IMG/VR virus record: IMGVR_UViG_2654587996_000006
DNA length: 37,884 bases
Origin: a virus
Taxonomy: Duplodnaviria; Heunggongvirae; Uroviricota; Caudoviricetes
Reading direction: 5' to 3' (one strand)
How positions within the stretch are numbered: the stretch's first letter is position 1; each line of letters opens with the position of its first letter. A program made the position numbers and the translations under genes. The notes under the pieces are model-generated. The model made no database searches and was not told the origin of the DNA. It was given only the letters and a program-made list of their open reading frames with translations. Shown here in pieces: positions 2,621 through 36,752 of this stretch.

Positions 2621-2732
2621 AACTGAAGTTGCCCTGAAAATGAAATTTTTTTGCACAACCGCAGAACTTTTCCGCAGGGCATCAGTCTTAATTAATGCCA
2701 CTGCTTTTCTTTGATGTCCCCATTTTGTGGAG

Positions 2733-2775
2733 CCCATCAACCCCGCCATTTCGGTTCAAGGTTGATGGGTTTTTT
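2733..2775 (+). terminator. rho-independent terminator-like hairpin plus T6 downstream of ybjL, near the prophage right boundary
   Basis: cccatcaacc ... ggttgatggg (10-bp stem) followed by tttttt; may overlap the attR core. Confidence 0.45.
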
Positions 2776-2855
2776 GTTGCCTGAAATTTATACCGTTTAA
2801 AATCATGATGTTAGAAGCACTGTTTTTTAACGATGGCGACAAAATGGCGGCAGCG

Positions 2856-3164: not shown

Positions 3165-4265
3165 TCATTCCATTTCGAAATCATCAATTCTCACTTCAAG
3201 CTCCAGACTGGTCGTAAAACCGTTATCCGGGCTGACGGTATGTGTCAGAGTCGTAATGGTCCATTCCGCATCATCTATCGGCTGTTTAAAACCACTGACC
3301 TTCACAGGCATTTCCGTGTAGAGATCTGCCCGCCCTTCCGCCAGTTGTAGCGAGAATGACGCAACTCCGCGTTGCAGGCGTTCCCACTGCATTTTCGCCG
3401 CTCGTTCGGCGTTGCTCCGATTGGCATAGGTGCGATTAAGTACCAGCACGTTTTCATCCGTACCCACCAGGTAATCGCCCTGCTTCGCTTCCGGCTCTTT
3501 CTTCTGCTTCTTAGTCCTGCGCTTACGCTTCACCATGGTGCTTTCTTTCTTCGCGGGTTCGCGGGTATGCAACCAACTGGCAATTACGCCCGTATAGGCT
3601 CCGCGATCTGCCAGGGTAAAGCGGTGACTGTCGCCGTCCTTACGTGTGATAGTGATCACCGGTAGTGGTTTACCGCTGGCACTTTTGCCCTGTCCCTGCC
3701 GGATGAATAACAGATTGCCATTTTTCACCGATGCAATGGCACCGTACTGGCGCGCCAGCCGCATCAAAAAACTGCCGTCACTCTCATTAGTCTGGTCTAT
3801 ATGATCCACGGGTTTCTCCGACAGGTCTTTACCCAGTGCCATCTTCAGTTTGTGACGCGCAGCTATTTCCTTCACCACTTCCCCGACAGTGGTCTTGTGC
3901 CACGATTTTTCACGGCGGGTATTCAGCGTTTCCCGAAAATCAGCACTTCGCGCCCGGATAGTCAGGCGATCCGGTGCGCCAGTGTGTTCAATCTCGTCCA
4001 CCGTGAATGCCCCTTTCGGGACAAGCGGCTGCCCTTTCCAGCCCAGCGCCAGCGTAATGACCGCACCACGGCGCGGCAGCACGATTTTTCCGTCGGCGTC
4101 GTCCAGCTCCAGATCAAGCTGGTCCGCTTCAAAGCCCCGGTTATCCGTCAGCGTAAGCCCCATCAGGCGGTTATCCAGCACAGTGGTGATATCCTTGCCT
4201 TCAATACTGATGCTGAATGCGGGAGTTTTGTTGCCTTTGTTAAGCAGTTCAGAGCTGAAATTCAC
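3165..4265 (-). CDS. D: tail protein D (late control gene D family)
   Basis: 366-aa ORF at the end of the tail operon; P2 gpD-like sequence and position. Confidence 0.85.
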   Translation of the reverse strand: MNFSSELLNKGNKTPAFSISIEGKDITTVLDNRLMGLTLTDNRGFEADQLDLELDDADGKIVLPRRGAVITLALGWKGQPLVPKGAFTVDEIEHTGAPDRLTIRARSADFRETLNTRREKSWHKTTVGEVVKEIAARHKLKMALGKDLSEKPVDHIDQTNESDGSFLMRLARQYGAIASVKNGNLLFIRQGQGKSASGKPLPVITITRKDGDSHRFTLADRGAYTGVIASWLHTREPAKKESTMVKRKRRTKKQKKEPEAKQGDYLVGTDENVLVLNRTYANRSNAERAAKMQWERLQRGVASFSLQLAEGRADLYTEMPVKVSGFKQPIDDAEWTITTLTHTVSPDNGFTTSLELEVRIDDFEME

Positions 4266-4747
4266 GACAGCAGCCCTCCCACCGTTTTACTGATATCGCT
4301 TAATGCAGATGTTGCCGTGTCCTGCAGATTATTCAGCTGCGAACTGAGATCACCGAACATATCGGACAGGGATTCATCCACCCGTTTGAGCGACAGGGTG
4401 AACTCAATCCGGCGCGGCATACCGTCGCGGAAAAACTCCGTTTTAGTCTGATTCAGTCCCTCAATCACATACATGCCGTAAATCGTGCCGCTACCTTCAA
4501 TCAGGGGCCATGCTTTCCCCTGTTCTGCCATCTGCTCCAGAGCCAGCAACGACAGCCTGCCGCCTGTTATCTCCGGCATAAGAACACCGGAAAGCGTCAG
4601 CATGTCGTTGTCCGGTCCCAGAAACTGCGTGGACGGACGACGGTTTACCCGACTGTTTGCCGCATGTCGCCAGCTACGTTGATACTGCAGTTCCTGATAC
4701 GGCACGGTGCGCAGCATAAACACGTACAATCCCAGCACCATCATCAT
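4262..4747 (-). CDS. U: tail protein U
   Basis: 161-aa ORF, 4-nt overlap with D, immediately downstream of the tape measure gene; P2 order T-U-D. Confidence 0.8.
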   Translation of the reverse strand: MMMVLGLYVFMLRTVPYQELQYQRSWRHAANSRVNRRPSTQFLGPDNDMLTLSGVLMPEITGGRLSLLALEQMAEQGKAWPLIEGSGTIYGMYVIEGLNQTKTEFFRDGMPRRIEFTLSLKRVDESLSDMFGDLSSQLNNLQDTATSALSDISKTVGGLLS

Positions 4748-7700
4748 GCGTCGTATCCCCCCTGATCGCTGTAGTTACTCCTGGCCTTTGCCTTCAGCCT
4801 GCGTTCACGTTCATCAAGCTGGCGGGCCACCTCCCGCGCAATATCCTGCGCACTTTGTCCTGGCTGCGTCTGAATGATGATCTGCGTCGGTGCCTCAATC
4901 CGTTGAACGGGCGGCACAATGGCTGCACGACTCACCATCGCTTCGCCGCCTTTCGCGGGAAGTGCCAAAGGATGCAACGGTGGAAGCTCTGCAGGCGCGG
5001 CAGCAACGCCCATCATTCCGGCAACAACGGCAGCCAGTGAAGCTGTATTTCTCCGGCTGGTCACGTTTGCCGGGCCGTTAACAATTTCCGGCCCGTTTTC
5101 ACCGACGATGCCAAACTGCCCGCGCGGGATATAGCCGCCGCTGTCATACATCCCCGCAAAGCCATATCCCCATGACGGAAAACCACCCGATGGCATCATC
5201 ACTTTACCGTCAGCATTCACCGTCGCAGGTTGCTGATGCGTCACGCTTTCCGGCAGTTTCGCCTTTGCAGCCTCTTTACTGACAATGCCGAGTTTATCCA
5301 GCAACCAGGAAACACCGGATTTCAGGGAGTCCAGCGGATGCATAACCATATTCAGACCTTCCGCCAGTGCCTCCCCGAATCGTCGTCCCATTGCCGCTGC
5401 GCTCTGCAGTTCGGCAGAGGTCGACTTAACGGGCGTCAGCAGATCAGTAAACCAGCCCCACAGCGCCTGCACTTTGTCGCCAATCCACTGGAACACGGGC
5501 TTAAGCGGTTCGAACGCTGCACTAACGGGACCTGCCGCCGCTTTGAATCCTTCCACCACGCCACCGAGAAATGCGGTGATGGGTTGCCAGTATTTCCAGA
5601 CAACCAGCGCCACACCCGTCAGTGCAGTAACCACAAGACCTATCGGACTGAGCAGAGCACCTAACAGACCAGATACGGCATACAGAGCAACGCGCAGCAT
5701 CGTCAGCGGACCGGATGCCAGCACTCGTAGCACCGCGCCTGCGGCAGCCAGTCCACCGCGCAGTACCGCCAGAGGATTCATAAACATCACAGCAACAGCA
5801 CGTAAAGCGGATAATCCAGACCGCAATAGTGCAACCGGCGCACCTGCTACAGTTTTCAGGACATTTCCCGTCAGTGATGCCGTACGGCGCAAAGACGACA
5901 ACGGCGCAGTAAGTAAACCCGCTGCGTTACCCGATGAAGCAAGCCCGCGTCGCAGCACTGCCAGTGGAGCGCCAGCCAGCCAGAACAACGCGCTGCTGGT
6001 TCGTGTTACTGCTGCCGTAACGGAAGGTAACGTTTTGATGCCCAGCACAGAGAATCCCAGACGGATGACTGCCAGCGGCCCCAGCACTGCAGCCAGCGCC
6101 ACAGCCAAGGTGCCGAGGCCTACGGTAACCGCAGCCACAATAGCGGCTACTTTCATCAGTGTGCCCGTCAGTTCCGGGTTAGCTTCCACCCAGCGACGCA
6201 ACGCTCCCGTAACGCTTTTCACCATGTACAGAATATCCATCAGCGGCTGGCGCAACGTTTCGCCCAGGCTGCTGAAGGTATTCTGCGCTCCGGTTTTAAC
6301 CAGCAACCACTGAGCAGAAAGTGAGTCCTTGTTGATGTCGGATTCTTTCTGCATGGAACCGAGCGCATCATTGCCCGCTGTCAGTTTTAGCTGGCGCTGT
6401 AGTTCCGGCAGGTTGTTTGCCAGTTTCGCCGCGTCATCGCCAAACTCTTTACCAAACAACATGGTCATGGCAGACAGACGCTTGTCCTGCGGCAGTGCGT
6501 TCACCTTCTCCAGTACACGCTGGATAGTTCCCATCGCATCCTTCGTCATCTGCTTTTCAATCACTTCAGGATTGAGTTTCAGCAGATTCATCCCTTCAAA
6601 GAAACTCTTGCTTTGCATGGTGGCAATGGACAATTCACGCACCATCGCGTTTGCTGCACTGGCTGCAACCTCCGGCGCAGCGCCCAGTGTCAGAAAGGTG
6701 GAACCCAGTGCCGCCGCTTTACGATAATCCAGACGGTCAGCCACACCGCCCAGACGTTGCATCACATCAATGATGTCCGCCCCTTTCGACATGGCGTTAT
6801 CATCCAGATAGTTCAGCGCATCGCCGAGCTGTTCAATATTGCGAGTAGGTATTTTGTAGAGCTGGGCGATTTTCCCCAGACTTTCTGACAGTTCATCCGC
6901 TGGCAGCTCAAAGGCTGTTGCCGCCTTTGCTGCCGTACTGGCGAAGGCCAGCAGGTCACGTTTCTGGTCTTCCCAGCTGTCGTCAGGGTTTGCGACGTTC
7001 ATGCGCGCACCACCTTCAACCAGTGCAGCGAAGTCCACCGCCCCGTTTTCCATCGGCAACTGTTCGCTGGCAGCCTTGATGGCATCCTGCATTTCATAAA
7101 AACGTGCAGTACGGTTTCCATTATCGTCACGCAGACCATTGACCTGCTTTGCCACACCTTTCATGGCATCTTCCATGCTGGTATAGCTTTTTACTGCCGC
7201 CATCACTGGCGTCCCCATTGCCAGCCCTGCAGCCGTGGTAGTGGCTCCGGCTCCTGCAATACGATCGCGCACCTCCAGCGAACGGGCATAACTGGCACGC
7301 GCCGCATTCATCCTGCGCTGAGCTTCACCCAGTCGCTTCAGCCGCGCCTCCTGTTTCGACAATTCCTGGTTATAACGTGATGTTTCACGGGCTAAACGGG
7401 CAGTTGCTCCCGCATCATCTTTCGCAGAAATTCCCGCCCGGTACAGTTCTGCACGCACAAGCGCCGTTTGCTTCTGCAAATATTTTTGCTGTTCTTCCAG
7501 GCGTTGGACTGCCAGCGTTTGCCGACCTAAAGCCACAAGGTGCCGTTGTGATGGTTGTTCCATCGCCTCCAGCTCAGAGCTAAGCAAATTAGCCTTCTGT
7601 CTGGCATAGTTCAGCCTGTCGCCTAACTTCTTGTTATCAGCCTGCAGCTTGCGAAATTTTTCCAGGCTATTACCCGCCTGATTGAGTTGCTTTAATGCGT

Positions 7701-7821
7701 CACGGGAGTTTCTGATTGCGCCAGCCAGCTCTTTCGAACTGGCCTGTGCAACACGGAATGGGCGGGTGAGTTTGTCAACCGCATTAAGAATGACCTGCAG
7801 CCGCAGGTTGTTATCACTCAT
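4744..7821 (-). CDS. T: tail tape measure protein
   Basis: 1025-aa ORF with a coiled-coil N-terminus and Ala/Gly-rich hydrophobic middle; located after E/E' as in P2. Confidence 0.9.
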   Translation of the reverse strand: MSDNNLRLQVILNAVDKLTRPFRVAQASSKELAGAIRNSRDALKQLNQAGNSLEKFRKLQADNKKLGDRLNYARQKANLLSSELEAMEQPSQRHLVALGRQTLAVQRLEEQQKYLQKQTALVRAELYRAGISAKDDAGATARLARETSRYNQELSKQEARLKRLGEAQRRMNAARASYARSLEVRDRIAGAGATTTAAGLAMGTPVMAAVKSYTSMEDAMKGVAKQVNGLRDDNGNRTARFYEMQDAIKAASEQLPMENGAVDFAALVEGGARMNVANPDDSWEDQKRDLLAFASTAAKAATAFELPADELSESLGKIAQLYKIPTRNIEQLGDALNYLDDNAMSKGADIIDVMQRLGGVADRLDYRKAAALGSTFLTLGAAPEVAASAANAMVRELSIATMQSKSFFEGMNLLKLNPEVIEKQMTKDAMGTIQRVLEKVNALPQDKRLSAMTMLFGKEFGDDAAKLANNLPELQRQLKLTAGNDALGSMQKESDINKDSLSAQWLLVKTGAQNTFSSLGETLRQPLMDILYMVKSVTGALRRWVEANPELTGTLMKVAAIVAAVTVGLGTLAVALAAVLGPLAVIRLGFSVLGIKTLPSVTAAVTRTSSALFWLAGAPLAVLRRGLASSGNAAGLLTAPLSSLRRTASLTGNVLKTVAGAPVALLRSGLSALRAVAVMFMNPLAVLRGGLAAAGAVLRVLASGPLTMLRVALYAVSGLLGALLSPIGLVVTALTGVALVVWKYWQPITAFLGGVVEGFKAAAGPVSAAFEPLKPVFQWIGDKVQALWGWFTDLLTPVKSTSAELQSAAAMGRRFGEALAEGLNMVMHPLDSLKSGVSWLLDKLGIVSKEAAKAKLPESVTHQQPATVNADGKVMMPSGGFPSWGYGFAGMYDSGGYIPRGQFGIVGENGPEIVNGPANVTSRRNTASLAAVVAGMMGVAAAPAELPPLHPLALPAKGGEAMVSRAAIVPPVQRIEAPTQIIIQTQPGQSAQDIAREVARQLDERERRLKAKARSNYSDQGGYDA

Positions 7822-8250
7822 CGTTGGCCCCGCTTCTCTGAATCGCTTTATACCGCCATTCCAGCACTTCGGTCAGCGGCATAACGTCAGTAACGGATGG
7901 CGGCCAGTGAAAAATGGTGGCGATGTCTGCCACCAGATCGTCAACCGTCAGGCTGTCGGTAAACCGGCAAGCACCGACTTCTTCAACAAAAAAGTGACAA
8001 CCTCAACCGACATAGCGGTGAGATCTGCCGGGTCCATCTCTGCGATTTCCTGTGCAGTCAGTACCGGACTGGAAATGCGGGGGATCACGGTCATCATCGC
8101 GTTCACATCCATATCCATAATGGCCTGCAGGCGCGTGCCGCGCAGCGCACCGGACTGCGGCTTACGCAGCACAATTTCGGTGATTTCCGTTTTACCGCGC
8201 TTGATAGGGGTATCCAGTTGAATGGTCTTTTCAGTCTGCTTATCGCTCAT
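7814..8250 (-). CDS. E+E': tail assembly chaperone E+E' produced by programmed -1 frameshift
   Basis: Slippery heptamer T TTT TTG (plus 7987-7993) sits 12 codons before the E stop; the -1 frame is open from there for about 57 codons to a TGA at 7814-7816 that overlaps the T start (ATGAGTGA). Predicted product about 143 aa, matching the P2 E+E' arrangement. Confidence 0.7.
7948..8250 (-). CDS. E: tail assembly chaperone E
   Basis: 100-aa ORF between FII and T; ends ...TFLLKKSVLAGLPTA with the T6G slippery site inside TFLL. Confidence 0.8.
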   Translation of the reverse strand: MSDKQTEKTIQLDTPIKRGKTEITEIVLRKPQSGALRGTRLQAIMDMDVNAMMTVIPRISSPVLTAQEIAEMDPADLTAMSVEVVTFLLKKSVLAGLPTA

Positions 8251-8304: not shown

Positions 8305-8820
8305 TCAGAGGCCGAGGGCGTTGCGGTGCGCTTCCATCAGGTCCACACCGTCCACAATTTCCACCATGTTGATAAGGTCCACTTCATAGAGCACCTCACC
8401 ATTGATGGTCAGCTTCGCGTAGCTGTTGGTACTGGTCACTTTGGTGGTGTTGCTTTCGCCCGTCTTCCACTCGCCGGAATCCACTTCTTTGTGACGTCCA
8501 CGCACCACAAGCTCCACGGCCTGCACTTCCCCGGTATCGTCACGCTGGATAGAGCCGGTAAAGCGCAACTGGATGCCATCCACCGTGGATTTGCCCATCT
8601 GCTTAAACAGCAGCAGTTCGGTACCACCAATGGAAAATTCTGTATCCAGTGCACTGTCATCCAGTCCCAGATCCACATCCACCGCCCCCGGCATACCGCC
8701 GCCGCGATACTTCTCATATTTGCGGGTGAATTTCGGCAGCGTCAGCGACTCAACGATTCCCTGCCAGTTGTTCCCGTCGTTAAACAGGTTCAGATGTTTT
8801 AATTTGCGTGGTAAAGCCAT
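8305..8820 (-). CDS. FII: tail tube protein FII
   Basis: 171-aa ORF directly downstream of the sheath gene; P2 FII-like. Confidence 0.85.
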   Translation of the reverse strand: MALPRKLKHLNLFNDGNNWQGIVESLTLPKFTRKYEKYRGGGMPGAVDVDLGLDDSALDTEFSIGGTELLLFKQMGKSTVDGIQLRFTGSIQRDDTGEVQAVELVVRGRHKEVDSGEWKTGESNTTKVTSTNSYAKLTINGEVLYEVDLINMVEIVDGVDLMEAHRNALGL

Positions 8821-8829
8821 GTTGTCCCC

Positions 8830-10002
8830 TTACGCGCTGACCTGGCTGGCGAAATTCACCAGGTACTGATCGGTGATGCGCTGGCGCAGCATCAGATTTT
8901 CAAGTGGCGGCACTGGCGTGTAGTCGTAGTCGATGGTGAGTTTTCCGGCTTTAAGCGTGTCTTTGTCGTTCACCGACTCGTCCAGCCAGCAATCACCACC
9001 AATGAGATAGCCCTGACTGACCAGGCTGCGCATTTTGGCGCGGATACCTTCGATAATGTCGCGGGCCAGCGACGGGTTCAGCGGTTTGTCCACCGCCCAC
9101 ATGTGTGCTTCTGCCATCGTGTCCGTCAGCACCTGCGCCGTGCGGGTGTAGTTTTCGAAAGCAAAAAGCGGATCATCGCTCAGACAGCGGGAACCCCAGA
9201 AGCGGAAACCATCCTTGCGCACAAGCGTGGTGACGTCGTTCTGGTTCAGCAGACCTGCATCGGTTGCCGGGTCCTGCAGATCCCAGAACACATCAGCAGA
9301 AATTCCGGTGACACCGTTCACGCCCACGTTGGACAGGCTTTTGTGCCATCCGGTCTGCTCATCAATTTTGGCGCGCAGACCGAGCGCACGGGCGGTGGCA
9401 TAAGCCGTTGCTTCGGCATTCAGCACCGTGTCCCAGCCAGTAAAGTCGGGCCAGATCAGCATTCCTTCACGCTGACTGAAGTTTTCACGGTAAGTGATTG
9501 CTTCCTGCACCGTCTTGCAACCATACGCTGACAGGTAAGCAAACCCACGCAGGCTTTGCGCCACGCTCAGCAACTCAGTAGCTACCGCCTTCGTGTCGTG
9601 ACCTGGCACGCCGAGAATGCGCGGTTTAACGCCGAGCTGTGACTGGGCAGATAACAGGGCTTTCATGCCTGTTTTTTTACCTTCAGCAGTCACTGCGCCG
9701 ATGATATTGGTCGTGGTTTCTTCTTCCGTTTCACCCTGCGGCACACGCACAACAACGGTCACGGGTTTTGCCTGGTCAGCGATGGCGTCCAGCGAACGGG
9801 CCAGCGTACCGGACTCACCCGCTTTACCGCTGGCAGTCAGCACATCAGTGATCAGCACGGGTTTATTAAGAGGAAACATTTTTGCATCGGCATCATCGCC
9901 CGTGCAGACCATACCCACGATGGCGGTGCTCACCGTGGTAATGGATCGGGTGCCTTCGTTGACTTCAACAACGCGCACCCCGTGGTGGTAATCCTGAGCC
10001 AT
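8830..10002 (-). CDS. FI: contractile tail sheath protein FI
   Basis: 390-aa ORF, first gene of the F operon; P2 FI-like. Confidence 0.9.
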
Positions 10003-10143: not shown

Positions 10144-10710
10144 TCAGGGAGATTCATTGCTCTTATTTGCCGGAAATTTTCTATAAATGGTAGAAACGCC
10201 TACATCAAAAATCAGTGCAATACGCTGTCTTGATTCTCCGGCCTCGAGTAAACGCCCAATCTGTGCCCACTGTTCGGTGGTCAACTTAGGACGGCGTCCA
10301 CCTACTCTGCCTTTGGCACGAGCTGCAGCCAGCCCTGCCCTGGTACGTTCAACTATCAGTTCGCGTTCCATTTCAGCCAGGGCACCCATGACATGAAAAA
10401 AGAAACGGCCCATTGGGGTGCTGGTATCAATACTGTCAGTCAGGCTTCGGAAATTCACGCCTCGCTGACGCAACTCTTCTATCAGCGTAACAAGATGCCG
10501 CATACTGCGCCCCAACCTGTCCAGCTTCCAGACAACCAGCGTGTCTCCTGCCGATAGTGTCCTGAGCAGTTTTTTCAACCCTGGTCTGTCGGACTTAGTG
10601 CCACTGATTTTATCCTCAAAAATCCGCTCACATCCCGCGCAGTTCAGTGCATTACGTTGCAAATCGGTGTTCTGGTCATTTGTTGACACGCGTACATAGC
10701 CAATAAGCAT
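10144..10710 (-). CDS. pin: serine DNA invertase (Pin/Gin/Cin/Hin family)
   Basis: MLIGYVRVSTNDQNTDLQRNAL... with the catalytic Ser in YVRVST and a C-terminal HTH; nearly identical over its length to enteric invertases (closest by memory to e14 Pin). The ORF as given starts 2 codons earlier at 10716. Confidence 0.9.
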   Translation of the reverse strand: MLIGYVRVSTNDQNTDLQRNALNCAGCERIFEDKISGTKSDRPGLKKLLRTLSAGDTLVVWKLDRLGRSMRHLVTLIEELRQRGVNFRSLTDSIDTSTPMGRFFFHVMGALAEMERELIVERTRAGLAAARAKGRVGGRRPKLTTEQWAQIGRLLEAGESRQRIALIFDVGVSTIYRKFPANKSNESP

Positions 10711-10777
10711 GATCATCCCCCTGAATAAAAACCGGGGATGATGCCAGTTAGCCGTAATCGCTGCATTTTCTTAAACG

Positions 10778-10792
10778 TTGGTTTGGGAGAAG
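10778..10792. repeat. left inversion crossover site (inverted repeat TTGGTTTGGGAGAAG)
   Basis: 15-bp perfect inverted copy of 12625-12639; both copies encode GLGE in frame. Confidence 0.7.
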
Positions 10793-11127
10793 CGGCAAAA
10801 CGAAATGTGGGAACAGGGGAAAATCAGATACCAGATATGTCTGCATTCCCATCTGGCAAAAACTGGTTTCAGTTACCAAGTGGTCATATTGTCCAAATGT
10901 TTTCGATGAATGTTTATGGGGCGGACACTAACGGAACTACTGGTAATTTCCCTATTGCATTTCCTTCAGGTGCACTTGCTGTTAGTGCCTTATGGTCTGA
11001 TGGCACATTAACGGCTGCTCCGACCTTTAAACTTATGGGGTACACGACAACAAGGACATCAGTAACCTTAAAAGTATCAACCGGAAATGGTTTGTATGGA
11101 ACTATGATTATTGCAATAGGAAGATAA
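10793..11127 (+). CDS. alternative tail-fibre C-terminal segment (silent in this orientation, no start of its own)
   Basis: The open frame continues in frame from the crossover site (...VGLGE|AAKRNVG...); after inversion it would fuse to the constant N-terminal part of H. Confidence 0.55.
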
Positions 11128-11128
11128 T

Positions 11129-11572
11129 ATGAATCAATATATTTATTCCCCTTCGGAAAATGCATTTTATGCTGTTAATTTAAAAAATACTTATGAAGTA
11201 AATGGAACATGGCCCGCTGATGCATTAGATATTCCTGATAACATTTCTGTAAAATATATGGCGAAACCGCCACAAGGGAAAATCCGAGTTGCAGGGGTAA
11301 ATGGTTTTCCCACATGGGCTGAAATACCTCAACCATCACATGAAGAACTTATTCAACAGGCAGAATCAGAAAGACAATTATTGCTTAATCAGGCCAACGA
11401 ACACATGAACAGTAAGCAATGGCCAGGTAAAGCCGCTATTGGTCGTCTGAAAGGTGAGGAACTGGCGCAATATAATTTGTGGTTGGATTATCTGGACGCA
11501 CTGGAACTGGTCGATACTTCCAGTGCTCCAGATATTGAATGGCCTACGCCTCCGGCAGTTCAGGCCAGATGA
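11129..11572 (+). CDS. alternative tail-fibre assembly chaperone (Tfa/U')
   Basis: 147 aa; C-terminal ...LWLDYLDALELVDTSSAPDIEWPTPP matches the conserved C-terminus of G (...LDYIDAVTVTDTSTAPDVIWPELP). Confidence 0.75.
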   Translation: MNQYIYSPSENAFYAVNLKNTYEVNGTWPADALDIPDNISVKYMAKPPQGKIRVAGVNGFPTWAEIPQPSHEELIQQAESERQLLLNQANEHMNSKQWPGKAAIGRLKGEELAQYNLWLDYLDALELVDTSSAPDIEWPTPPAVQAR

Positions 11573-12146
11573 CATCCGGCGCGGTGCTGGTATCTGTTAC
11601 CGTCACCGCGTCAATGTAATCCAGCACGGCGTTAAGTCGGGTTGTTTCTGCCTGCGTCAACTTCCGTCCGGCCTGCAATTTCAGTTGAATCAGACTAATG
11701 GAAGCCATTGCAGTATCAATCAGTGACTGACGTTGTGCTTCTGCCGCGTCTACTGCGGCGCTATGCTGTGCCTCGGTATCCGTCACCCATTTCTCACCAT
11801 CCCATTTATCGTATGGCGTTAACGGGGCGATAGTGGTTGTTTTTTCGGGGTAATCACCCGGAGTTGTGATTTCTTTGGCGTCTCCCGTTTCGGTGTTATA
11901 GACGATTTCACCGCGATGGTCTGGCACATATTCCCATGAGTTTAAATCCATCGAACGGCAGATAGCATAACCCGCCTTATGTGTGCCAGGGGCATCTAAA
12001 CAGGAATATGCAGGGATACCGACGCCAACAGCAAGATATTCATTTGAAGTGGAAATATATTCTCGAGTTTCACCATCATAGTTATAGACGGTAATATTCC
12101 CTGCTTTGGTGGCGATAATCTCGCTATTTAATATGGCGTTATCCAT
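11544..12146 (-). CDS. G: tail-fibre assembly protein G
   Basis: 200 aa, start overlaps the H stop (TAATG); conserved Tfa C-terminal motif. Confidence 0.85.
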   Translation of the reverse strand: MDNAILNSEIIATKAGNITVYNYDGETREYISTSNEYLAVGVGIPAYSCLDAPGTHKAGYAICRSMDLNSWEYVPDHRGEIVYNTETGDAKEITTPGDYPEKTTTIAPLTPYDKWDGEKWVTDTEAQHSAAVDAAEAQRQSLIDTAMASISLIQLKLQAGRKLTQAETTRLNAVLDYIDAVTVTDTSTAPDVIWPELPEA

Positions 12147-13687
12147 TATGCAGCCCTCACAATATAGTTAAATGCAATATTCCTTGGTCGAACCCTAAAA
12201 CCAGCCCCTGCGCCTGCTCCAGTTGGTGGCAATTCGATAGAGGGGTATGCTGTTGCAGGGGAATATAAACCTTCACGGGAATCATAATCAGTCGTCATAT
12301 AGTTAGACGTATTATCAGAAACAGTTTCTGTCGGTCTGGTAACCAGACGATAAGAGCCAGTGGTTGGTGACCTGACCAGACCAAAACTTTCAACCAGAGT
12401 GGCTTTTTGAAAGCTTAATAATCCCCGACCACTGTCAGCTCCACGCCCGTCATCCCAGCCACGAATAAACTCACCACGTAAATCAGGCAATTTATTTGTC
12501 GGATAAGCCTTTGCCAGTTCCGGGTATTCTTCAGCAGAAAAAGCTGCACCGTTGCATTTCAGCCAGCCTGTCGGCGGAGTGGCTGAAGGCCATGGAACAG
12601 GTACACCAACAGGTAATGCCGAACCTTCTCCCAAACCAAGGTATGCGAGAAGACCAGCTACATCCTTTCCACTCAAATTAGTCAGCGTATTGTCCAGCGG
12701 TTGTTTACCTGCCAGCGCATTAAGCATTGTCGTGGCAAAGTTCGGATCATTCCCCAGCGCCGCCGCCAGTTCGTTCAGTGTATCTAGGGCCGCAGGTGCA
12801 GAACCCACCATTCCTGCAATCGCCGATTTCACAAAAGCCGTAGTGGCAATCTGTGTATTGTTGACCGACTGCGCCGCCGTGGGGGCTGTTGGCGTTCCGG
12901 TGAGTGCCGGACTCGACAGCGGCGCTTTCAGTGCCAGCGCATTGTTAATGGTGGTACTGAATTTCGGATCATTGTTAATGGCTACGGCTATTTCTTTCAG
13001 CGTGTCCAGCGTGGCTGGCGCACCATTAATAAGAGCCGTCAGTGCCGCCTGAACAAATGCGGTGGTCGCAAGCTGCGTGGTATTATTCCCCGCCGCTGGC
13101 GTTGGCGCTTTGGGGGTTCCGGTAAACGTCGGACTTTCTTTGGGTGCATACTGTGAATGCGGGTCCGGTGCGGCAAGATGTTTTGCCATCAGGTCATCCA
13201 CGTACACCTTCAGCTCCAGTGCCTTGTCATCCACATACTTGCGGGTTGCCAGCACTACAGCAGGGTCGATTTTCAGGGTGATATTGTCCGTACTGCTGGT
13301 AATCAGCACCATGCGCACGGTCTGGGTGCGCCCGCTGCCTTCAGCCAGTTGCGGCTTATAGCTTTCCGGGCAGTTGCCCACGGCAATCAATGCCCCGGAC
13401 TCATCAAACAGGCCCACTTCACGTATCCACCAACCGCCCTCGTTTTCAGGGATCACCTGTTCAGCAATAATCTGGCTGCTGTTCTGCGGGTCGATATAAA
13501 GCATATTCAGCGCAGCCCGGCGTTTCTCATTTACCAGTGCCGTCTGCTTTGCGTCCGGCGTTGGCAATACTCCGCCGCCATCGCCCACCGCCATATGGGT
13601 AATTTTTAGCGGCACACCGAGCGCGGCGGCGCTGGCAAGTTTCGCCGCGCCAATATCCGTCAGCAGGGTATAAAATTTTGTGCTCAT
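12146..13687 (-). CDS. H: tail fibre protein H (constant N-terminus plus currently expressed variable C-terminus)
   Basis: 513 aa; Ala/Thr-rich repeats (TTAFVxxA, NDPxF) typical of tail fibres; the inversion crossover site lies inside the gene at 12625-12639. Confidence 0.9.
   Translation of the reverse strand: MSTKFYTLLTDIGAAKLASAAALGVPLKITHMAVGDGGGVLPTPDAKQTALVNEKRRAALNMLYIDPQNSSQIIAEQVIPENEGGWWIREVGLFDESGALIAVGNCPESYKPQLAEGSGRTQTVRMVLITSSTDNITLKIDPAVVLATRKYVDDKALELKVYVDDLMAKHLAAPDPHSQYAPKESPTFTGTPKAPTPAAGNNTTQLATTAFVQAALTALINGAPATLDTLKEIAVAINNDPKFSTTINNALALKAPLSSPALTGTPTAPTAAQSVNNTQIATTAFVKSAIAGMVGSAPAALDTLNELAAALGNDPNFATTMLNALAGKQPLDNTLTNLSGKDVAGLLAYLGLGEGSALPVGVPVPWPSATPPTGWLKCNGAAFSAEEYPELAKAYPTNKLPDLRGEFIRGWDDGRGADSGRGLLSFQKATLVESFGLVRSPTTGSYRLVTRPTETVSDNTSNYMTTDYDSREGLYSPATAYPSIELPPTGAGAGAGFRVRPRNIAFNYIVRAA
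12625..12639. repeat. right inversion crossover site inside H
   Basis: CTTCTCCCAAACCAA is the reverse complement of 10778-10792. Confidence 0.7.
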
Positions 13688-24970: not shown

Positions 24971-26635
24971 CTATAAATTGAATTTATGCATTCTTAACTC
25001 ATTCAATTTACTCTCTCTAGAAATCTTCATTAAAGCAGCCTTAGCTTTTATAGAAACAGATCTCGTTTTCTCATTTACATTACCAATACGACTAAATTTG
25101 AGACAAGTAGCAACGTGGGATGTTAAATGATTCCCATGCAAACTTTTAAAATAATGATAATAATCATCTTCAGTAGCGCTACTTAATACTTCTATATCAT
25201 CATCATTCCAGCCATTTTTTCCACTGAGCGCATCCAACACCTCACCTAAAGTGCGCTTGGGTGAATCAGTTAGATACACACCTTTAAATTTCTCAATGAT
25301 TTCTGCATCTTTGATTGGTCTAAAAAGATAAAAATTATCCAGATCAAATAACTCTATTTCACTTCGTCTTTCTTGAATATAATACGTAATCATCTCAGAT
25401 GCCTTTGTATCTTCACCTAGTTCACGGAAGACCCCAACAAGGCTATCAAGATCATTAGGAGATACTTGAGTTACACAATCCATAAAGCACTTATAAAAAT
25501 GAGAAACAACTTCTTCTACATTATCATCAAAACTATTATGGAATAAATCCCATGCACTTCTAAATGAGTTTGACTTTTTATTTTCTAAAGCCTGTTTATT
25601 TATAATTTTTATTGCCTCATTAAACTCTGTCATATCTATATAACCATTCCTGACTAGCTTTGCTATTTTCCTATCCAGCTCATCAACCCTTGTAAAATTA
25701 TAGCTCAGTAAAATATCCTTCCATTTTTTTTCTTCTTCTGTTACATCCTTTTTGCCTATTGAGTAAATACTTTCCATAGATTCGAGGAAATCCAAAGAGG
25801 GAACATCCTTATCTGATTTAGAGCAATAATAGGCCCAATTCATTAATACAACCGTATGCAAAAATTGCATTTTAACTTCACTTTCGCACTCTTCAAAAGC
25901 TCGCCATGCATTTTCTACGTTTCGCTCTATTTTCTTTAAAACTCTAATATTTTTGATGCCTAACGAAATAGTATATTGTGCTAACGGCTTATGAAAATCC
26001 TTACTATTATCATATGCTATCTGTGCAGATTCACTGGGCGTAGGTGAAAAATGCAACTCAATGTCAATTACTTTTTCTTTAAACTTTTCATAATCAGCAA
26101 CTTCTTTAGTACCATCATTGAGTAAAAGTATAACCTTACATTTCTTTTGTTCTTTTAACAAAGAAATAAGACCTAATACATCTTTAAGTTCTAATGACGA
26201 TCCTTTACGCTCTAAATCATCTATGCAAATTAATGAATCTGACACAGACATAAATGACCATGCTTCTATTGCAGGAGCGGCAGACTTTATATACGGCAGC
26301 TCTTTCAATTTACTCCACGAACCTCGCCCCAATATTTCAAGCATACCTAATGTATTTTTTCTTAAACTATCTAAACTTGGCTCATGTCCTATGGAGTCTT
26401 TTGAAACTGCATTTTCAAAAATGGAATATTTTAATCTATCTAACGAAGATATACCGAAAAGAGAGACATAGGAATAATGCGAAGCAGAAATCATATTTTG
26501 ACACTTTGCTTCCAGAAGAAACTTATTCCAACTAAATGTCTTACCAACTCCCCACTCTCCTTTAATTGCCATAACCGAAGGGGCTGATTTAGAAACAAAG
26601 TTTAGAATTTGTTCTCGTACCAAGCTTAGCGACAT
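24971..26635 (-). CDS. KAP-family P-loop NTPase (cargo gene, candidate anti-phage factor)
   Basis: 554 aa; Walker A GEWGVGKTF matches the KAP signature GxWGxGKT; Walker B LICIDDLER; strong RBS AAGGAG; visibly AT-rich compared with the flanking phage genes. Confidence 0.8.
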   Translation of the reverse strand: MSLSLVREQILNFVSKSAPSVMAIKGEWGVGKTFSWNKFLLEAKCQNMISASHYSYVSLFGISSLDRLKYSIFENAVSKDSIGHEPSLDSLRKNTLGMLEILGRGSWSKLKELPYIKSAAPAIEAWSFMSVSDSLICIDDLERKGSSLELKDVLGLISLLKEQKKCKVILLLNDGTKEVADYEKFKEKVIDIELHFSPTPSESAQIAYDNSKDFHKPLAQYTISLGIKNIRVLKKIERNVENAWRAFEECESEVKMQFLHTVVLMNWAYYCSKSDKDVPSLDFLESMESIYSIGKKDVTEEEKKWKDILLSYNFTRVDELDRKIAKLVRNGYIDMTEFNEAIKIINKQALENKKSNSFRSAWDLFHNSFDDNVEEVVSHFYKCFMDCVTQVSPNDLDSLVGVFRELGEDTKASEMITYYIQERRSEIELFDLDNFYLFRPIKDAEIIEKFKGVYLTDSPKRTLGEVLDALSGKNGWNDDDIEVLSSATEDDYYHYFKSLHGNHLTSHVATCLKFSRIGNVNEKTRSVSIKAKAALMKISRESKLNELRMHKFNL

Positions 26636-26728
26636 AACTCACTCCTTGATTGCGAATGTTAATTATATATTTTACCAAAAATCTTAATCACCACCTATAG
26701 AAAGGTGAAAGATGGGTGCTGGCGCGCG

Positions 26729-26747
26729 CTCGTATCCCCGCCACGCC
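26729..26747 (-). other. candidate cos cohesive-end site
   Basis: Minus strand reads GGCGTGGCGGGGATACGAG; the first 13 nt match my recollection of the 186/P2 19-nt cohesive end (GGCGTGGCGGGGAAAGCAT); GC-rich island in an AT-rich region, in the expected place between Q and the replication genes. Confidence 0.4.
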
Positions 26748-26786
26748 TGCCCGCTTTGTGTAGTGGTTTTCATGCACCTGCATGAC

Positions 26787-26806
26787 ATAAGCAAAAGCCC
26801 GCCAGC
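26787..26806 (-). terminator. hairpin gcccgcca-gctc-tggcgggc with a short U-run on the minus strand
   Basis: 8-bp GC stem; minus-strand continuation is TTTTGCTTATG; lies between the HNH gene and the KAP gene. Confidence 0.4.
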
Positions 26807-26929
26807 TCTGGCGGGCATCAGCAAAAACGATCCTCAAACGATCATGCGATTTCATGCGGCATAGACATGCGTTGGCAAAAATGTACGAAATACTCAGCTT
26901 ACAGGAAATGGTCTTTTTCCAACCTCCAG

Positions 26930-27649
26930 TTAGCCAAAGCAGAAACCAATATTGCAATTTGAAACTCCACAGTTGTGAAATTGATGTGGACCGACTCTTA
27001 GCTTGTGTTCGTCTCCTACAATCCGAGTCCCCTTAACCAACATATCTAATCTTTCCACAATCAATCTTTCAGGCGCATCAACTTTAATAATTAAACGAGG
27101 ACCTTTCCTTTTTTCTATAATAGTTATTCTAGGACCAACAACCTGAACATCCCAATGCCTTGCACTACAAACCCACTCATTCTTAATTAATTCAAGATTA
27201 ACAATACCTTGACTATCGTAAAATTTACCCGAAATAAGAAAAGCATTATTTTCTTTTTCAATGGTTAACAATGGCTCATTTTGAAACATTATTGGTACAG
27301 TACAGGATTCAAATGTCGCACCACCAAATATTATTGTTGGATGCCTATCAGAAAAGTCCAATATATCGGCCACATTCCCTTTTTGTAAGGCTGCAGGAGA
27401 TTCCATTGCTTTAATTATTTTCTCTTTAGAGTAAAGACGTTTCGTTACTTTCGCATGGCACGTAGGACAAAGTAGTGCTATTGCATTTGGAGAGTGCTCC
27501 TTTGCATCAGCGTATGTGGGAATTACATGCTCATACTCAACAATGGGAGAAGCACAAACAACGCAACCAAAGCCACAGCGCTGCCTTACCTCCAGTTTTA
27601 CAGGTTCAGGAATTGTTCTAGATAACCCATGCTTGTTAATAGTTGTCAT
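26930..27649 (-). CDS. HNH endonuclease-motif protein (cargo gene)
   Basis: 239 aa; N-terminal CGFGCVVC ... EYEHVIP ... N ... CPTCH, the Cys4/His-Asn-His layout of HNH nucleases; AT-rich. Confidence 0.7.
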   Translation of the reverse strand: MTTINKHGLSRTIPEPVKLEVRQRCGFGCVVCASPIVEYEHVIPTYADAKEHSPNAIALLCPTCHAKVTKRLYSKEKIIKAMESPAALQKGNVADILDFSDRHPTIIFGGATFESCTVPIMFQNEPLLTIEKENNAFLISGKFYDSQGIVNLELIKNEWVCSARHWDVQVVGPRITIIEKRKGPRLIIKVDAPERLIVERLDMLVKGTRIVGDEHKLRVGPHQFHNCGVSNCNIGFCFG

Positions 27650-35420: not shown

Positions 35421-36752
35421 ATGAGCACAGATATAACTTTCGATATACGTGATGAATATAAAAGAAAAGCCATTGCAGAAAAAATAATAAGTTTGCTAGA
35501 GTCTAATATTCCTGTTTCACCTATGGTCATAGATGGGGACTGGGGGACTGGAAAAACAGAGTTTTCAAAAAAGTTAGCATCCTTAATTGAAATAAACTCG
35601 ACCAATCATAAAGTAGTTTATATAGATGCTTTTACTGAAGATCACAACGATGCTCCCATACTTACAATAATGGCCGCAATTGCAGCTCTATATAATAGCG
35701 ATGAAAAAAAGGAATTAATATCTAAGGCATTGCCAGCCCTCAGATTCGGACTTAAGACTGTACTCAAAGCTGGTGCTGGTTGGGTATTAAAACAAAATGC
35801 GGATGAAATTAATGAGGAATTTGAAGAGGTTATCAAAGACGCTGCAAATTCAGCTATCGATGGAACCATCGAGGCTCTGTTAGAAGATCATATCGAGGCA
35901 CAAAAGAACGTTCTTGCTCTAAAAGAAGTACTAACCAAATTAGCTGGAGAAAGTAAACTAACAATAATTATAGATGAGTTAGACAGATGTAAGCCTAGTT
36001 TTGCCATTTCTATTATTGAAAATATAAAACATGTTTTTGATATAAAAAACATTAACTTTTTATTAATTGCAAACACAACTCAACTAAAAGCATCCATAAA
36101 TCATATCTATGGCTCTTCTGTAGACTCCAACCGTTATCTTGACAAATTTATAAAATTTACATACAGCCTTCCTGTTACCTTTAAGGAAGATAATTATAAT
36201 GACACTTTAACTTCCAAAAATCATTGGATGATGCTATGTGAGCAATCTGAAAGGCTGACCGCTGCAGTAGAAGCCAGCGAAGATATTTTCTTACAGTTCA
36301 TTGAAAGTAGAAAATTATCATTACGTGAGGTTGAAACACTTGCTAGATATGTTGAAATATACCAACTACTATCAGGCGACAAAATTAGCAACAAATATAT
36401 TTATGGATATTGTTATTACAGGACTCTAGCGATAATAATCTACACTTTTAACCGAGAGTTAGCTCTCAACTTTCTTGAAGATAAAGTTGATGCTCAATCA
36501 ATCATGAAATTGTTTGGTTTATCTAAATTTTCATATCAAACAAGTGAATATAATGTAGATAATTATGAATATGCTATATTTGGAATAGTTTACAAATACT
36601 TATCTGAAAACTCATCTCTTTTACCTGCTGAGGAAAATATAAAAAGACAATGGGCAGAAATGAGTGAATACCATTTTTTAAAAGGTGGTGGCGGTATTGG
36701 TGAACCAACAAATATTGTGAAAGATGCTTTAAAAGTTTTTTTACTTCAGTGA
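35421..36752 (+). CDS. KAP-family P-loop NTPase, second copy (cargo gene, candidate anti-phage factor)
   Basis: 443 aa; Walker A IDGDWGTGKTEF matches the KAP signature; Walker B LTIIIDELDRCKP; AT-rich; lies between cI and int. Confidence 0.8.
   Translation: MSTDITFDIRDEYKRKAIAEKIISLLESNIPVSPMVIDGDWGTGKTEFSKKLASLIEINSTNHKVVYIDAFTEDHNDAPILTIMAAIAALYNSDEKKELISKALPALRFGLKTVLKAGAGWVLKQNADEINEEFEEVIKDAANSAIDGTIEALLEDHIEAQKNVLALKEVLTKLAGESKLTIIIDELDRCKPSFAISIIENIKHVFDIKNINFLLIANTTQLKASINHIYGSSVDSNRYLDKFIKFTYSLPVTFKEDNYNDTLTSKNHWMMLCEQSERLTAAVEASEDIFLQFIESRKLSLREVETLARYVEIYQLLSGDKISNKYIYGYCYYRTLAIIIYTFNRELALNFLEDKVDAQSIMKLFGLSKFSYQTSEYNVDNYEYAIFGIVYKYLSENSSLLPAEENIKRQWAEMSEYHFLKGGGGIGEPTNIVKDALKVFLLQ

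Follow-up and report, generated by a model that had tools for sequence, protein, structure and literature searches.

A probable P2-type -1 frameshift between tail chaperone gene E and its E' extension in an Escherichia coli prophage

Does the tail assembly chaperone gene E of a P2-like prophage end in a programmed -1 ribosomal frameshift that would extend some of its product into a second reading frame? An earlier note, made from the letters alone, had proposed such a shift for a locus within a window of 37,884 nucleotides, the whole stretch of DNA analysed here. The window holds an E. coli chromosomal segment with ybjM, ybjL and the RybB sRNA, followed by a P2-like (Elveevirus-like) prophage that continues up to an integrase gene cut by the window end. 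Our analysis indicates that a programmed -1 frameshift of the P2 E/E+E' type is very likely, based on the geometry of the locus, its homology, the conservation of the slippery heptamer and the selection that acts on the -1 frame at the protein level.

Gene E lies in a series of tail genes, all on the minus strand, in which tube, E, T, U and D follow one another:

10002..8830, minus strand: sheath gene, Phage_sheath (Pfam)
8305..8820, minus strand: tail tube gene (FII homologue), directly upstream of E; PF04985, E = 1e-59
7948..8250, minus strand: gene E, tail assembly chaperone, standard-decoding product of 100 aa from ATG 8250 to stop 7950..7948; PF10109 Phage_TAC_7
4744..7821, minus strand: gene T, tape measure protein, 1025 aa; PF10145 PhageMin_Tail, N-terminus aligning with P2 T residues 3-91
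4747..4262, minus strand: gene U, Phage_P2_GpU (Pfam)
4265..3165, minus strand: gene D, Phage_GPD (Pfam)

Open reading frames and Pfam matches revealed an intact tail operon around E, with tube (PF04985) and tape measure (PF10145) genes on either side of the E/E' pair. The E product matched PF10109 Phage_TAC_7 in Pfam with E = 1.1e-18 (67.5 bits, the cutoff being 25) and PHROG 103, 'tail protein', with E = 1e-43. A PDB profile search yielded no relative, NCBIfam holds no model for E or E+E' and Rfam gave no match in this region; an AlphaFold2 single-sequence model of E reached a pLDDT of 45.

The putative shift site and the reading frames around it are arranged as follows:

7987..7993, minus strand: slippery heptamer T_TTT_TTG, the predicted -1 shift site; codons in frame 0 are ACT TTT TTG
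7951..8002, minus strand: 0/-1 overlap zone of 52 nt, the sole stretch with both frames open, bounded upstream by the -1 frame TGA 8005..8003 and downstream by the E stop
7814..7987, minus strand: E', a -1 frame stretch of 57 codons that extends E, lacks its own start and ends at TGA 7816..7814; PF06528
7814..8250, minus strand: E+E' fusion coding region, predicted 145 aa, with 88 codons in frame 0 (8250..7987) and 57 codons in frame -1 (7987..7817)

The heptamer that the earlier note had seen near the 3' end of E was confirmed at 7993..7987 (T7993-T7988 plus G7987), 12 codons ahead of the E stop, and it stands in X_XXY_YYZ phase because the E frame reads ACT TTT TTG. The -1 frame, described as open for about 57 codons, comprises exactly 57 sense codons from G7987 (VEEVGACRFTDSLTVDDLVADIATIFHWPPSVTDVMPLTEVLEWRYKAIQRSGANDE) followed by TGA 7816..7814, and the early -1 frame stop that the note had named as a possible refutation is absent throughout. 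Past the heptamer, frame 0 continues for 12 codons, the +1 frame for none and the -1 frame for 57. Upstream, TGA 8005..8003 blocks the -1 frame, which becomes open at 8002, 9 nt ahead of the heptamer. As it is open only from there, and the E stop ends frame 0, any shift must fall within 8002..7951, and the T_TTT_TTG heptamer is the only X_XXY_YYZ site in this 52-nt zone. The corresponding fusion would have the feature location join(8250..7987,7987..7814) on the minus strand, with ISSPVLTAQEIAEMDPADLTAMSVEVVTFLVEEVGACR as its predicted tryptic junction peptide and ISSPVLTAQEIAEMDPADLTAMSVEVVTFLLK as a predicted peptide of E.

One detail of the proposed layout had to be corrected: the TGA that ends E' does not overlap the ATG of T (7821..7819), but follows 2 nt after it (ATGAGTGA), so that the E' and T open reading frames overlap by 8 nt. 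The first 92 residues of T align with P2 T from residue 3-4, indicating that the T start is right and supporting the E'/T boundary.

To what extent might this layout be coincidental? TTTTTTG occurs 10 times on this strand of the window, compared to about 2 expected copies, and arithmetic from the copy count gives a chance of roughly 0.005 for an in-phase copy in the 52-nt zone. When the same bases were shuffled, a stop-free frame of 57 codons arose in 8% of cases. Taken alone, heptamer and open frame are mildly improbable and only suggestive; homology is decisive.

When aligned to the reconstructed P2 E+E' (142 aa), a comparison that the earlier note had called for, the fusion showed 49% identity over 139 aa with 0 gaps (BLASTP, E = 2e-51). 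The two proteins are colinear across the junction, with VVTFL/VEEVGA opposite P2 VVGFL/VAELGA (slash at the junction). In the P2 record (NC_001895), E+E' is annotated as a joined CDS (P2p26/P2p25) with a 'site of -1 translational frameshift' beside TTTTTTG, and both E and E+E' carry the label 'essential tail protein'. The P2 heptamer TTTTTTG, at 679-685 of the P2 locus with the annotated site at 686, falls into the same alignment column as the one in the window, and applying the same -1 rule to P2 returned 142 aa, the published length. According to Christie et al. (2002, J Bacteriol 184:6522), as given in PMC3091744, P2 frameshifts at TTTTTTG to produce E (91 aa) and E+E' (142 aa); PMC5009743 puts the efficiency in P2 and its relatives at 2-3 fold that of lambda G-T.

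The two loci are alike in the heptamer with its phase and alignment column, in a -1 extension of 57 codons, in an 8-nt E'/T overlap of the form ATGAGTRA (ATGAGTAA in P2) and in the position of the pair between tube and tape measure genes. They differ in the length of E (100 aa here, 91 aa in P2), of its 0-frame tail past the slip site (12 versus 6 codons), of the fusion (145 versus 142 aa) and of T (1025 versus 815 aa), as well as in the codon that provides the first T of the heptamer, ACT (Thr) here and GGT (Gly) in P2. By every criterion that sequence is able to test, the locus belongs to the P2 E/E+E' family. Phage 186 has the same TTTTTTG and a 57-codon -1 extension at orf51/orf52 (gene H), and its own record notes a probable frameshift; the N-terminal part is longer there (fusion of 162 aa), and the protein is about 43% identical to the window fusion.

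The earlier note had placed the locus with both P2 E/E+E' and lambda G/GT. Kinship with P2 was borne out by homology and by the shared heptamer column, whereas the parallel to lambda held for position and mechanism, but not for sequence family and heptamer. Lambda likewise has two overlapping open reading frames, joined by a -1 shift, between its major tail (tube) and tape measure genes. A Pfam scan (E <= 0.01) gave no match to the lambda gpG/gpT families for E or E+E'; as only PF10109 and PF06528 were returned, the pair is analogous to lambda G/GT in position and mechanism, but not a family member. The lambda slippery heptamer is G_GGA_AAG, in contrast to T_TTT_TTG here, and among the relatives only a Mannheimia phage has GGGAAAG; also, the lambda tail is non-contractile.

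A tblastn search with the fusion retrieved 425 phage records, 374 of which hold at least 80% of it. Nearly all matches listed break into two pieces, and at all 13 loci inspected, passing from the N-terminal piece to the C-terminal one requires a change to the -1 frame. E' is conserved at full length in hundreds of phages, plaque-forming ones included. We then surveyed the heptamer at 260 loci from annotated phages and IMG/VR, collected with four queries, and counted 259 sequences, that is, the window and the loci with a locatable E' motif. All 259 carry an in-phase heptamer, which is T6N in 258 and GGGAAAG in one (the Mannheimia phage). An automated pipeline, which resolved 250 of them, reported 232 TTTTTTG, 10 TTTTTTC, 7 TTTTTTA and 1 GGGAAAG, and direct inspection revealed in-phase TTTTTTG in the remaining 9, for which the pipeline had chosen the wrong stop. 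The T6 run is the same in all 70 distinct sequences of a set of close relatives (nucleotide identity 77-98%), as are the codons ACT and TTT with the wobble T of each, although 76 of the 85 third codon positions of E differ within this set. In more remote phages, the codon whose wobble position supplies the first T of the heptamer varies in the amino acid it encodes (ACT, GGT, TCT). With a wobble base as its first T and with ACT and TTT invariant, the alignments argue for selection on the heptamer beyond coding.

These data also bear on a different mechanism, in which RNA polymerase would slip on the T6/A6 run and add one U to some transcripts, so that standard translation of these would give E+E'. 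The slip site is a homopolymer run, and both mechanisms would result in nearly the same protein and are indistinguishable from DNA. Productive transcriptional slippage in bacteria, however, is described for stretches some 9 A or T long (PMC5009743), and the run here is 6. Moreover, the run is always phased X_XXY_YYZ, with the next base keeping a slippery A-site codon (UUG, UUA or UUC), and one relative has G_GGA_AAG, a classical ribosomal heptamer without a homopolymer. The P2 event, finally, is described as translational in NC_001895 and in PMC3091744. We therefore consider polymerase slippage highly unlikely and retain ribosomal frameshifting at the heptamer as the preferred reading.

Sequence variation within the E'-only stretch shows how this DNA is read. 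In the -1 frame, 31 of 43 third positions vary, compared to 8 of 43 second positions, and synonymous and nonsynonymous codon differences number 418 and 213, respectively, as opposed to 100 and 553 in frame 0. As variation is biased toward third positions, with a synonymous excess in the -1 frame only, we conclude that the -1 frame is translated and under purifying selection. The -1 open reading frame of this particular prophage could, in principle, be an untranslated relic, or its heptamer a coincidence, given that heptamer and open frame alone are only mildly improbable and that prophages can be defective. The purifying selection, a strong Pfam match of the -1 frame (PF06528 Phage_P2_GpE, E = 4e-19), its full-length conservation across hundreds of phages and the intact tail operon all speak against this, rendering it extremely improbable.

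A translated E' might also come from a gene of its own, a 39-aa reading frame from GTG 7933 to TGA 7814 that would need no frameshift. This is how databases present the region. Near-identical elements (96-97%) are found in Escherichia phage Cartapus, Klebsiella phage 4LV2017 and many E. coli chromosomes, and their public records list a 120-nt CDS, 'GpE family phage tail protein', at this position. In Cartapus and 4LV2017 the E-E'-T region is 96-97% identical at the nucleotide level, and the fusion protein of Salmonella phage SEN8 is 86% identical. These Elveevirus/Felsduovirus-like relatives share the slip-site context and geometry (88+57 codons, ATGAGTGA) and differ by few substitutions, with E' given as a separate 39-aa open reading frame in their records. 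The PF06528 model, too, begins exactly at the position of GTG 7933. Yet, this GTG lacks a Shine-Dalgarno (SD) sequence, the best anti-SD duplex being -4.5 kcal/mol, and the equivalent residue is I in the Mannheimia homologue and W in the Vibrio MAR homologue, where the position is no start codon because the genetic code allows none for W. In addition, the -1 frame protein is conserved upstream of the GTG all the way back to the heptamer (VEEVGACRFTDSLTVDDL versus VAELGAVTFPKNLSVDDL in P2), and the PHROG 1756 match spans fusion residues 85-145, starting right at the slip site, upstream of the GTG. The P2 homologue is a -1 fusion in NC_001895 and likewise in PMC3091744. An independent E' gene is thus very improbable, and E' is most plausibly translated as the C-terminal part of a frameshifted E+E'.

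With respect to stimulatory elements flanking the heptamer, two candidates were evaluated:

7956..7977, minus strand: small hairpin of 6 bp (UCGGUG/UACCGA), 9 nt past the heptamer, a weak candidate 3' element from folding
8000..8004, minus strand: SD-like GAGGT (codons E83-V84), 6 nt ahead of the heptamer, a candidate 5' stimulator from anti-SD duplex calculation

RNA folding over 57 and 87 nt past the heptamer was no better than for shuffles (z = -1.6 and -0.04, respectively), and an alignment fold of 18 relatives gave -5.9 kcal/mol (covariation term -0.4) and revealed no compensatory changes. The hairpin was rejected as a conserved 3' element, with its pairing broken in P2 and 186 and the fold scores insignificant. 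Hairpins are reported as absent in P2, KS5, KS14 and KL3 in PMC3091744.

The GAGGT motif forms the strongest anti-SD duplex in E/E', and its GAG is invariant in 70 of 70 close relatives. Across 21 lineages, the anti-SD affinity of 8-mers is highest 1-5 nt ahead of the heptamer, where it reaches -6 to -7 kcal/mol over a background of -1.3, and most P2-type E genes carry an SD-like sequence (GGAGGTGGTC, AAGGTGGTC or AGGTGATC) 1-7 nt upstream of U6N. As a null model, we used synonymous codons, with the peptide kept fixed and local codon usage taken into account. Recoding the six upstream codons in this way left the motif equally strong (P = 0.55 for the window, combined P = 0.13 for the 21 lineages), and a signal obtained in a 10-lineage version of the analysis (P = 0.011) was lost with 21 lineages. 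Since synonymous recodings are equally strong, the SD-like motif and the conserved [K/E]-V-[V/A]-G peptide are inseparable. That it acts as a conserved, rRNA-pairing 5' stimulator, perhaps raising P2-type frameshifting 2-3 fold above lambda without a 3' structure, is a tentative and rather doubtful suggestion; if true, the [K/E]-V-[V/A]-G peptide would be partly shaped by an RNA-level requirement.

The E. coli dnaX gene offers a comparison within the same host, as it also undergoes a -1 shift on an X_XXY_YYZ heptamer with an SD-like sequence shortly upstream. The dnaX heptamer is A_AAA_AAG, compared to U_UUU_UUG here, and the E/E' site has no supported 3' stem-loop or pseudoknot within 5-9 nt past the heptamer. 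In dnaX, the SD-like stimulator lies about 10 nt upstream of the heptamer, whereas the motif here is closer (about 6-7 nt) and is not enriched beyond amino-acid constraint. As 3' structure is not significant and the SD-like motif is inseparable from amino-acid constraint, the site appears to depend on the heptamer alone. A heptamer-only site agrees with P2 as reported in PMC3091744.

For this prophage, we infer the shift itself, its frequency, the junction residue and the respective roles of the two products along the following lines. Most ribosomes would finish E (100 aa) at the stop 7950..7948. In a minority, the P-site tRNA-Phe (on UUU) and the A-site tRNA-Leu (on UUG) would slip back by one base on U_UUU_UUG and both re-pair with UUU, assuming tandem slippage as in the canonical model and in P2. 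Decoding would then resume at GUU (7987) and proceed for 57 more codons in the -1 frame to UGA (7816..7814), resulting in a 145-aa fusion in which an N-terminal E chaperone domain is joined to a C-terminal GpE (E') domain. A functional model for lambda gpG/gpGT, in which the ratio of the two proteins matters for tail assembly, is summarised in a review (PMC5009743). By analogy, E and E+E' would both bind the tape measure protein T via their common E part, recruitment of the tube protein would fall to the rarer E' domain and the slip frequency would set a fixed, low ratio between the two. Following the lambda model, neither E nor E+E' would end up in the virion.

Overall, the P2-type tail chaperone frameshift found here is already known, and the locus opens no new question. 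The sole new point is that routine annotation misses the fusion, a shortcoming of annotation rather than new biology: RefSeq and GenBank list a free-standing 39-aa 'GpE family' gene, although the real second product is most likely the 145-aa E+E' fusion. For this E. coli prophage, the intact frameshift site supports a functional tail operon, in which the site would set the ratio of two tail-assembly chaperones, a textbook case of recoding in tailed phages.

At its host end, the window carries a small RNA gene:

2700-2778, plus strand: RybB sRNA (Rfam RF00110, 105 bits)

The prophage attachment site is probably at or adjoining rybB, and the host flank was found in 5418 of 5426 complete E. coli genomes. 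RybB directly adjoins the prophage end (ogr-like gene, gene D), preceded by the host genes ybjM and ybjL (288-2620). The element also holds three cargo genes foreign to P2, possibly defence or moron genes, at two places:

24971-27649, minus strand: a 554-aa protein resembling KAP NTPases and a 239-aa HNH endonuclease protein, between the packaging and replication genes
35421-36752, plus strand: a 443-aa protein strongly matching the KAP family of P-loop NTPases (E=1e-53), flanked by the CI-type repressor and integrase genes

In the tail-fibre region, a serine invertase gene adjoins a segment of about 1.9 kb:

10144-10716, minus strand: serine DNA invertase with Resolvase and HTH_7 domains
10766-10792 and 12625-12651: 27-nt inverted repeats at the ends of the segment

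The segment holds ORFs, on both strands, for alternative tail-fibre C-termini and for tail-fibre assembly. The whole region (10144-12651) looks like an invertible host-range switch of the Mu G or P1 C type, which P2 lacks. The tape measure protein T (4744-7821, minus strand) has 1025 aa versus 815 aa in P2, so a proportionally longer tail is predicted; Ala/Leu/Val/Gly repeats are abundant in its C-terminal half.

For phages and E. coli prophages that are nearly identical to this element, GenBank and RefSeq enter E', the -1 frame extension of the tail chaperone gene E, as a separate 39-aa 'GpE family phage tail protein':

7814-7933, minus strand: E' as an annotated free-standing ORF (counterparts at L001 1968-2087, L002 1968-2087, L005 718-837 and L261 344-463, all related loci)

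The annotated start of this ORF is a GTG lacking a Shine-Dalgarno (SD) sequence. None of these entries makes E' the C-terminus of a frameshift fusion; in the P2, KS14 and Midge records the E/E' join is annotated. Separately, the IMG/VR contig IMGVR_UViG_2695420821_000010 matches P2 E+E' twice: about 6 kb from the complete copy (L095) lies an incomplete one (L098, 11318-13031; residues 1-105, 100% identity). This extra match may reflect either duplication or an artefact of assembly.

Two elements flank the slippery heptamer:

8000-8004, minus strand: SD-like GAGGT, codons E83-V84 of E, 6 nt 5' of the heptamer
7956-7977, minus strand: 6-bp hairpin, UCGGUG...UACCGA, beginning 9 nt 3' of the heptamer

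GAGGT is the best anti-SD match anywhere in E/E', its GAG is kept in 70/70 relatives, and the anti-SD signal peaks clearly by position across the 21 P2-type lineages compared. Measured against synonymous recodings of the conserved peptide, the motif was no stronger than the recoded versions. The hairpin occurs throughout the close family and is missing in P2 and 186; in half of the sequences U-G stands in place of U-A, and there are no compensatory changes.

The heptamer itself varies. T_TTT_TTA occupies the slip site in seven close relatives (seven loci among L014-L093), T_TTT_TTC in the Vibrio MAR-like clade (L013/L253-L260) and others, and G_GGA_AAG, a lambda-type heptamer, in Mannheimia phage 1127AP1 (L012, 694-700). 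What the family conserves is a slippery site and not one fixed heptamer, with alternatives tolerated at the same place.
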